Position numbers and translations under genes: made by a program. Under the pieces are notes generated by a model, which was not told the DNA's origin, searched no databases, and saw nothing but the letters and a program-made list of their open reading frames with translations. Source: Escherichia phage EC106. Taken from it: DNA of 64,000 bases. The stretch is from sequence record ON210138.1. One strand, 5' to 3'. How positions within the stretch are numbered: position 1 is the stretch's first letter; the number at the start of each line of letters is the position of its first letter. Below, piece by piece: positions 51,865 to 52,868 of the stretch.

Positions 51865-52236
51865 ATGAAAGCTAAGAGTGCAAAAGACTTTTATTGCTTC
51901 CTACAATCCTATATCAATTCCGTGCAAAATGGTGAAAGGTACAACCTTAATGATGTTATCCCAACACCTTTGACATGGAGACTCAGTAAATGGCCTGAAG
52001 AAGATATTACACCAACAAGCGAACAATGCACCTACAAACCTGAAATCAATATTCCAGATTCTGAGAATCTATTATATCCAATGTTCCATATTGTTGGTCT
52101 TGGAAGATTCCTTATGGATATCCAGTATGTAATCGGTAAAGGTTATAAGGTTAAAGGTATTGTTGTTGGTGATGTATCTCCGCATCACAAAGGTTATTTT
52201 AGACTAAACGCACATTTAGAGGCTAAAAAGGAATGA
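51865..52236 (+). CDS. hypothetical protein, paralogue of the N-terminal half of the next gene
   Basis: 123 aa; colinear similarity to 52233-52868 (AKSAKDFYCFLQSYINSVQNGERYNL vs AKTYPDFKEFVKGFIANVKAGKRYDF; WPEEDI vs WPEADI). Confidence 0.5.
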   Translation: MKAKSAKDFYCFLQSYINSVQNGERYNLNDVIPTPLTWRLSKWPEEDITPTSEQCTYKPEINIPDSENLLYPMFHIVGLGRFLMDIQYVIGKGYKVKGIVVGDVSPHHKGYFRLNAHLEAKKE

Positions 52237-52868
52237 TTAAAGCAAAGACTTACCCAGACTTCAAAGAGTTTGTGAAGGGCTTCATTGCAAATGTAAAGGC
52301 TGGTAAGAGATATGATTTTAGAACATATCAAGAAGCTATTCTACCACTCACTTATAGCTCATATTGGCCTGAAGCTGATATTGCAGAGGTTGATAAGCTT
52401 GACTATAAACCAGACTACAAAGTCCCATTTAGTGATGAGTTGCTTTACAGCATCGGTGCTCAAATGAGAACTTCTGACTTCTTCATGTACTTACAATATG
52501 CAATTATCAATGGTAAAGACGTTGATACAGTTTATTGTGAATGGTTGGCAAGAGTTAAGCCATTCTCAATGCTGAATGCTAAGCTGAAGGATGCTATCAA
52601 GCCACCATCAATCACTCAGCAACCAACCAATCAAACAGTAAATGAAGGTGACACACTTACCCTAAGTATTCTTGCAAACAATGCCACTGGATATCAGTGG
52701 AAAAAGGGTGGTGAGGATATTCCTAGTGCCACATCTGCAACCTACACAAAACAGTCTGTAGCACCTTCTGATGCTGGTTCTTATACTTGTGTTGTGTCTG
52801 GAGAGGCTGGGACAAGTGTTACCTCAGATGCGGCAACAGTTACAGTTATGCCAGTAGTGGGGATATAA
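52233..52868 (+). CDS. paralogous protein with C-terminal Ig-like domain
   Basis: 211 aa; C-terminus ITQQPTNQTVNEGDTLTLSILANNATGYQWKKGGEDI...AGSYTCVVSGEAG matches the immunoglobulin I-set pattern. Confidence 0.5.
   Translation: MIKAKTYPDFKEFVKGFIANVKAGKRYDFRTYQEAILPLTYSSYWPEADIAEVDKLDYKPDYKVPFSDELLYSIGAQMRTSDFFMYLQYAIINGKDVDTVYCEWLARVKPFSMLNAKLKDAIKPPSITQQPTNQTVNEGDTLTLSILANNATGYQWKKGGEDIPSATSATYTKQSVAPSDAGSYTCVVSGEAGTSVTSDAATVTVMPVVGI

Follow-up and report, generated by a model that had tools for sequence, protein, structure and literature searches.

The window analysed here is a stretch of 64,000 nucleotides from Escherichia phage EC106 (sequence record ON210138.1), and all positions refer to it. 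The phage is a Felix O1-like myophage (Felixounavirus, Ounavirinae), and the 3 kb around the locus described below show 93-94% nucleotide identity to about 250 genomes (249 records). Two adjacent ORFs on the plus strand, referred to as gene A and gene B, lie directly upstream of the endolysin gene, exactly where the initial annotation had placed them. The order ORF38-like gene-gene A-gene B-endolysin is syntenic with Felix O1 ORF38-37-36-35. The features relevant to the locus are the following:

51827..51843, plus strand: hairpin rich in GC, GGGGCTGATGCCCC, with TTT after it, located 3' of the ORF38-like gene and 5' of gene A; equivalent to terminator t38 of Felix O1
51865-52236, plus strand: gene A, 123 aa, 14.2 kDa; stand-alone paralog, without Ig domain, of the capsid-binding domain (CapBD) of the hexamer decoration protein (Hex-Dec); phrog_4463
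52233..52236, plus strand: ATGA overlap of genes A and B, with the start codon of B over the stop codon of A
52233-52868, plus strand: gene B, 211 aa; ortholog of Bas63 Hex-Dec and Sf14 gp20
52233..52586, plus strand: CapBD of gene B, residues 1-118; Arg79 and Arg107 are present
52602..52850, plus strand: single Ig-like domain of gene B (I-set/Ig_3), residues 124-206, followed by a short conserved tail (...PVVGI)
52868-53332, plus strand: endolysin (phage lysozyme, GH24); PF00959 Phage_lysozyme, E 2.5e-40; phrog_7; corresponds to Felix O1 ORF35
53342..53369, plus strand: intrinsic terminator 3' of the endolysin, with a 7-bp stem (5 GC pairs) and the tail TTTTTTATTTT; corresponds to Felix O1 t35 (PMC3185647, Table 2)
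36035..37138, minus strand: major capsid protein (MCP), the binding partner of Hex-Dec; Asp221 is conserved

Gene A corresponds to ORF37 of Felix O1 and to gp21 of Sf14. Gene B corresponds to ORF36 (gene 12) of Felix O1, where it is labelled 'tail protein'. The ATG of the endolysin gene has one base in common with the TAA stop codon of gene B; the endolysin is a neighbour and has no part in the decoration function. The hairpin upstream of gene A is kept, with compensatory variation, in 27 related loci. It was missed by a strict terminator scan because its T-run is short. Its counterpart in Felix O1, t38, is listed with a dG of -10.9 (PMC3185647, Table 2). Genes A and B and the endolysin gene would form a short late unit between two hairpin terminators. 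A scan for sigma-70 promoters in the region 50500-54000 returned 7 sites, which is fewer than in shuffled sequences (10.5), and was uninformative. A candidate late-promoter motif 5' of gene A, CTATTTATAAGGA, was rejected, as its 5 matches in the window are not above chance (2.95 expected).

The gene for MCP is about 15 kb away from gene B and is encoded on the opposite strand. It is part of a structural module that extends from about 19968 to 42850, also on that strand. The nearest edge of this module (42850) is about 9 kb from gene B, which is thus located about 9 kb outside the module, the same as reported for Bas63. A cluster of 25 tRNA genes (43280-48572, minus strand) lies between the structural module and the A/B locus. 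It is adjoined by a 471-aa ORF (48738-50153, minus strand), which is annotated as 'RNA-binding protein' in relatives and as DUF2828 in Sf14 (gp25). The 196-aa gene upstream of gene A (51227-51817) belongs to phrog_4034 and corresponds to Felix O1 ORF38. Homologs of ORF38 are conserved out to Erwinia phage phiEa104 (28% identity, E 4e-18) and always precede the Hex-Dec slot. A Felix O1-like locus with 92.8% identity was also encountered in GU169904.1 (141167-144423), which is named 'Staphylococcus phage SA1'; its host label, or else its assembly, is questionable.

Gene A is preceded by an AAGGA Shine-Dalgarno sequence at a distance of 8 nt, and most relatives have, for gene B, a Shine-Dalgarno sequence that is weak or at an unusual distance. 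The ATGA overlap is kept in 26 of the 28 related sequences, with an 8-nt overlap in the other two, which implies translational coupling of A and B. In Felix O1, ORF36 and ORF37 peak at 60 min, together with the structural genes, and ORF35 (endolysin) and ORF38 peak at 25 min (PMC3185647). Gene A is thus likely to be transcribed late, together with gene B, and to be coupled to it in translation.

It had been noticed from the sequence that the N-terminal regions of A and B align colinearly. This was borne out over 121 alignment columns (about 120 residues). BLASTP aligns residues 1-119 of A with residues 2-119 of B (33% identity, E = 4e-15). The Smith-Waterman score is 133, and 2000 shuffles gave a mean of 27.2 (sd 4.8, maximum 60; z = 22). 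The score is thus far above the shuffled controls against which the initial annotation had asked for the alignment to be judged. When family profiles for A and B were built separately and compared by hhalign, they matched over 116 columns with 99.1% probability (E 1.4e-18). The C-terminal Ig domain that had been attributed to gene B was found at residues 124-206, with matches above the Pfam cut-offs (Ig_3, E 9.7e-13, 48.9 bits; Ig_2, E 2.4e-9; I-set, E 9.4e-8, 32.5 bits with a cut-off of 23.7). Gene A has no Pfam matches. The structure predicted for A by AF2 reproduces the fold of the solved CapBD, a match that is not fully independent of sequence homology because the alignment used for the prediction included Hex-Dec sequences.

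Gene B can be assigned to a protein for which structures are available. In phmmer searches, it matched Bas63 Hex-Dec (PDB 9NCF chain S) with an E-value of 5.9e-210, residues 1-206 being aligned from residue 1, and Sf14 gp20 (9C2D and 9C3A, chain S) with an E-value of 2e-144 (residues 1-207, aligned to 9C2D_S). Gene B, along its full length, and the first 206 residues of Bas63 Hex-Dec are 92-95% identical. Bas63 Hex-Dec and Sf14 gp20 were analyzed by cryo-EM in 2025 and are monomeric, Hoc-like decoration proteins (PMC12609058, PMC11821841). In the T=9 capsid, an N-terminal CapBD of 118 residues is seated centrally in the 60 pentamer-proximal hexamers, and Hex-Dec is absent from the other 20, which lie on the true 3-fold axes (PMC12609058, PMC11821841). 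In Sf14, salt bridges link Arg79 and Arg107 to the capsid protein at its Asp221 (PMC11821841); these contact residues are taken from the description in the Sf14 paper. The ortholog of gene B from Felix O1, Gp36, was detected in virions by MS with 44% coverage (PMC3185647).

Both arginines are present in gene B. Among all Hex-Dec orthologs, including that from the Erwinia phage, position 79 is an invariant Arg, and position 107 is either Arg or Lys. The MCPs of EC106 and Bas63 are nearly identical (9NCF_A, E 1.5e-245), and residue 221 of the former, as read from the alignment, is Asp. The dN/dS ratio of the CapBD of gene B is 0.045. Capsid placement and contacts can be transferred from the orthologs because sequence identity exceeds 90% and the contact residues are conserved on both partners. 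The CapBD of gene B is thus predicted to plug, as a monomer, the centre of the 60 pentamer-proximal hexamers via salt bridges between R79/R107 and D221, and the protein would display one Ig-like domain outward from the capsid. The initial annotation had left open whether the protein is a virion decoration or a lysis accessory. The former holds for gene B, as its ortholog was solved on the capsid; the latter does not, given the absence of a membrane-spanning stretch and a timing that differs from that of the endolysin. Gene B thus codes for an already characterized and solved protein. It is an ordinary member of its family and does not count among the tail proteins or the lysis factors. What remains as a puzzle from the A/B pair is only the upstream paralog, which has no Ig domain.

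The Ig-like repeats of Hex-Dec are flexible, and their number varies from 1 to 4 across the genus (PMC12609058, PMC11821841). The Ig domain of gene B matches each of the four Ig repeats of Bas63 Hex-Dec. In 26 related loci, gene B codes for 210/211 aa (4 loci), 294 or 298 aa (11 loci), 377 aa (9 loci) or 461 aa (2 loci), which corresponds to one to four repeats, EC106 having the one-repeat form. All length classes have the same short C-terminal tail and join the endolysin in the same way. This implies that whole repeats are gained or lost in-frame, in agreement with the Bas63 paper. By analogy to T4 Hoc, the Ig domain may target glycans, cell surfaces or other particles; a Hoc-like role of the repeats in adherence or aggregation was also inferred by the authors of the structural papers.

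Gene A is related to the CapBD of 9NCF_S (phmmer, E 6.8e-12) and of 9C2D_S (E 3.5e-11), with a sequence identity of about 31-33% to the CapBD of Hex-Dec proteins. The protein ends directly after this domain and measures 110-124 aa across all 51 clusters of homologs. As it is devoid of an Ig domain, it is a paralog of the domain and not a Hex-Dec. The capsid-binding domains of T4 Hoc and T5 pb10 are not among the matches to gene A. A homolog search with a CapBD-only alignment, as well as Foldseek against BFVD, found the CapBD family only in the Ounavirinae. An earlier profile, which kept the Ig columns (293 positions), had drawn 105,742 generic Ig-repeat proteins and was uninformative on the CapBD. 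The family occurs in three forms: the A type, without any further domain; the Hex-Dec type, with I-set Ig repeats; and a type from Kolesnikvirus, with a Big_2 domain.

The gene is intact (122-124 aa) in 27 of 27 IMG/VR loci, without frameshifts or length changes. It is also intact in 232 of 252 phage records, and about 19 of the 252 give only a cross-match to gene B. Gp21 from Sf14 is 77% identical to gene A, and Bas63 presumably also encodes it, judging from near-identical loci with four Ig repeats (L007 and L011). Gene A is deleted in about 8% of the relatives. These belong to one sub-lineage and were isolated as viable phages. It is also absent from the Erwinia Ounavirinae: phiEa104 (Kolesnikvirus) has the ORF38 homolog, Hex-Dec and lysozyme and is devoid of gene A. 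Thus, gene A is conserved yet dispensable. With E-values of 1e-17 and 2e-7, respectively, B is closer than A to the Erwinia ortholog. This fits either an old duplication with a later loss or a faster evolution of A.

Gene A is clearly a real gene that is under purifying selection at the protein level and is more than a mere open frame. Across Felixounavirus and Mooglevirus, 70 of its 123 positions are invariant, and dN/dS is 0.13 at a dS of about 1 (Nei-Gojobori); the values are 0.13 for the first Ig repeat of gene B and 0.08 for the endolysin. The protein diverges 6-7 times faster than the CapBD of gene B (dN of 0.153 vs 0.023), and the MCP is almost invariant. In all A proteins, Arg79 is replaced by a glycine (Gly78), and His/Gln-His is found at the position of Arg107. 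A total of 27 alignment columns are invariant within A and also within B, yet they differ between the two. These columns cluster at positions 74-79 and 103-113 of A, the segments that hold the counterparts of the capsid-contacting arginines. Gene A may thus have originated as a tandem duplicate that kept its fold, had its binding face rewritten and was subsequently frozen. A fold that is kept, combined with a binding face that is changed and frozen, points to a specific partner that is not the centre of the mature edge hexamers.

The homolog of gene A is missing from the list of Felix O1 virion proteins identified by MS, though a protein as small as Gp23 (9.7 kDa) was detected (PMC3185647). 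Proteins had to reach at least 25% coverage to enter this list, so that one of small size or low copy number might have escaped it. The Sf14 paper never mentions gp21, though it is encoded by that phage (PMC11821841). The terms 'paralog' and 'gp21' are absent from both structural papers (PMC12609058, PMC11821841), and a description of a CapBD paralog without Ig domain was not found in the papers searched. Neither cryo-EM study detected density on the remaining 20 hexamers (PMC12609058, PMC11821841), where icosahedral averaging would blur a monomer that is bound on a true 3-fold axis. The paper on phage wV8 lists only the tail fibre protein.

We speculate that A acts late, as an accessory protein that is non-stoichiometric and dispensable, and that its binding specificity has changed; it is probably not a stable component of the virion. 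It might act transiently during head maturation, either on capsid hexamers (those of the procapsid or those that are not decorated) or on Hex-Dec itself. This is a tentative proposal, and we consider it possible rather than probable. The tight coupling to a structural protein that is present in 60 copies would be equally compatible with A being structural and with A being accessory. Indeed, A might be a capsid cap without Ig domain that persists in mature virions, perhaps at low occupancy, and either competes with Hex-Dec for the 60 edge hexamers or fills the 20 that lie on the true 3-fold axes. A cap would be consistent with the predicted fold, with the late co-expression and the ATGA coupling with B, and with the existence of exactly 20 hexamers per capsid that have no assigned occupant; contact segments that are rewritten but strictly conserved would suit a hexamer centre of a different shape. 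However, density is lacking at these other hexamers, and Hex-Dec was built into that at the edge hexamers, at about 3 A. In addition, the protein is not in the Felix O1 virion list, has lost both basic anchor residues and, despite a near-invariant MCP, evolves 6-7 times faster than the CapBD of B, so that we regard a stable cap as unlikely. It is even less likely that A is a decaying duplicate without any function, kept only since translation of B needs ribosomes that arrive through A. While the deletion in about 8% of viable relatives, the absence from Kolesnikvirus, the faster evolution compared to the CapBD of B, and the weak or oddly spaced Shine-Dalgarno sequence of B in most relatives are all compatible with decay, a dN/dS of 0.13 over a dS of about 1, the 70 of 123 invariant positions in Felixounavirus and Mooglevirus, and the lack of frameshifts or length changes in 27 loci are not what would be expected from it. 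As a further alternative, A may have a function that is unrelated to the capsid.

Frameshift fusions occur for some Ig-tagged phage structural proteins, and in E. coli ribosomes are prone to slip on the lysine codon pair A_AAG. The A/B junction (52221-52236) reads GCT AAA AAG GAA TGA, and a -1 slip on AAA_AAG would enter the frame of B two codons before its ATG. A programmed -1 frameshift at GCT_AAA_AAG, before the stop codon of A, would thus result in a CapBD-CapBD-Ig fusion. However, the heptamer (T_AAA_AAG) is not a full X_XXY_YYZ motif, and it is not conserved across 28 junctions (GAA AAG in L012 and L013; AAT AAA or AAG AAA in Mooglevirus). The frames of A and B have a different relation in L028 and L031. 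With both the motif and the frame relation varying among relatives, such a fusion is very unlikely; moreover, the mass at which Gp36 of Felix O1 was identified (31.6 kDa) is that predicted for Gp36 alone (PMC3185647), and the cryo-EM models begin at residue 1 of Hex-Dec. There is hardly any room for the notion that A and B are lysis accessory or tail proteins, which is suggested by their position directly 5' of the endolysin gene and by the labels 'tail protein' or 'HK97 major tail subunit' in GenBank, RefSeq and PHROG. Transmembrane segments are absent from both proteins (for A and B, the Kyte-Doolittle mean over 19 residues reaches at most 1.14 and 1.09, respectively, less than about 1.6), and ORF36/37 do not share the timing of the endolysin in Felix O1. 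The PHROGs concerned (phrog_158, phrog_853 and phrog_3575) cover only residues 96-206 of gene B, i.e., the Ig domain. A tail-tube domain is not found N-terminal to the Ig domain, and the N-terminal domain of B matches the capsid-bound CapBD instead. The ortholog is seen on the capsid by cryo-EM, and the authors of the Bas63 study call the label 'tail protein' wrong (PMC12609058). For gene B, a role in lysis or in the tail is thus refuted by the published structures of its orthologs.

The identities of A and B are well supported. We assign a probability of about 80% to the reading as a whole, namely that B is Hex-Dec and that A is an Ig-less paralog of its CapBD, the late accessory role proposed for A being much less certain. 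The structure of the Ig-bearing protein, the variation in Ig copy number and the mis-annotation are already published. What is new is that the 'hypothetical protein' encoded upstream is a conserved, co-expressed CapBD paralog which has no Ig domain and has altered contact residues. As to the annotation, B and the many homologs called 'tail protein' should be named hexamer decoration protein. Gene A, which is called 'tail protein' in UniRef, should be named Hex-Dec capsid-binding-domain paralog. Decoration proteins serve as display scaffolds and are thought to mediate the adherence of phages to mucus and cells. A conserved copy of the anchor without Ig domain is a natural experiment on the gain or loss of capsid affinity, for which natural deletion mutants of A exist. 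If A binds capsids, an occupant would be at hand for those hexamers of the Ounavirinae T=9 shell whose emptiness is unexplained. If A does not, it would be an example of a structural domain that was recruited to another late function. The advance is small either way, as the main protein (B) had been solved beforehand; its significance would rise only if A both binds capsids and shapes the pattern of decoration, with 60 of 80 hexamers occupied.

Among the known systems, Bas63 Hex-Dec and Sf14 gp20 are the closest. Gene B shares with them the genomic slot 5' of the endolysin and an MCP partner with D221. They differ in the number of Ig repeats (one in gene B from EC106, four in Bas63 and three in Sf14), a variation which has already been described for the genus. 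Gene A differs from both in that it lacks an Ig domain and both anchoring arginines and has not been reported in virions. With T4 Hoc, Hex-Dec shares the general design, being a non-essential monomer at hexamer centres, with a string of Ig-like domains on a small capsid-binding domain. The Ig part of gene B also matches Hoc-like PHROGs (phrog_4069, E 3.8e-14; phrog_2973, E 8.6e-13). A member of the T4 Hoc family would, however, have a homologous capsid-binding domain at the C-terminus, after N-terminal Ig-like domains, and this is not the case for gene B. A paper from 2026 on a 'Hoc-like' protein from Shigella phage DSF2 deals with a member of the Schitoviridae and is irrelevant here. The Ig domain of gene B (residues 131-209) also matches that of T5 pb10 (5LXK, 8ZVI; E 1e-10 to 4e-11 for 5lxk_A and 8zvi_a), whereas the capsid-binding domain of pb10 has no similarity to the CapBD in sequence or fold searches.

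The Hex-Dec ortholog from Kolesnikvirus (P104_00380 from phiEa104/phiEa21-4) has a CapBD that is 32% identical to that of gene B (E 1e-17). It occupies the corresponding slot between the ORF38 homolog and the lysozyme gene, and it has basic residues at positions 79 and 107. It differs in having a Big_2 domain (PF02368) in place of the I-set Ig domain and in having no gene A alongside. In phiEa104 (19339-19953, minus strand), the displayed domain is thus swapped, with Big_2 replacing the I-set Ig domain on a conserved anchor.
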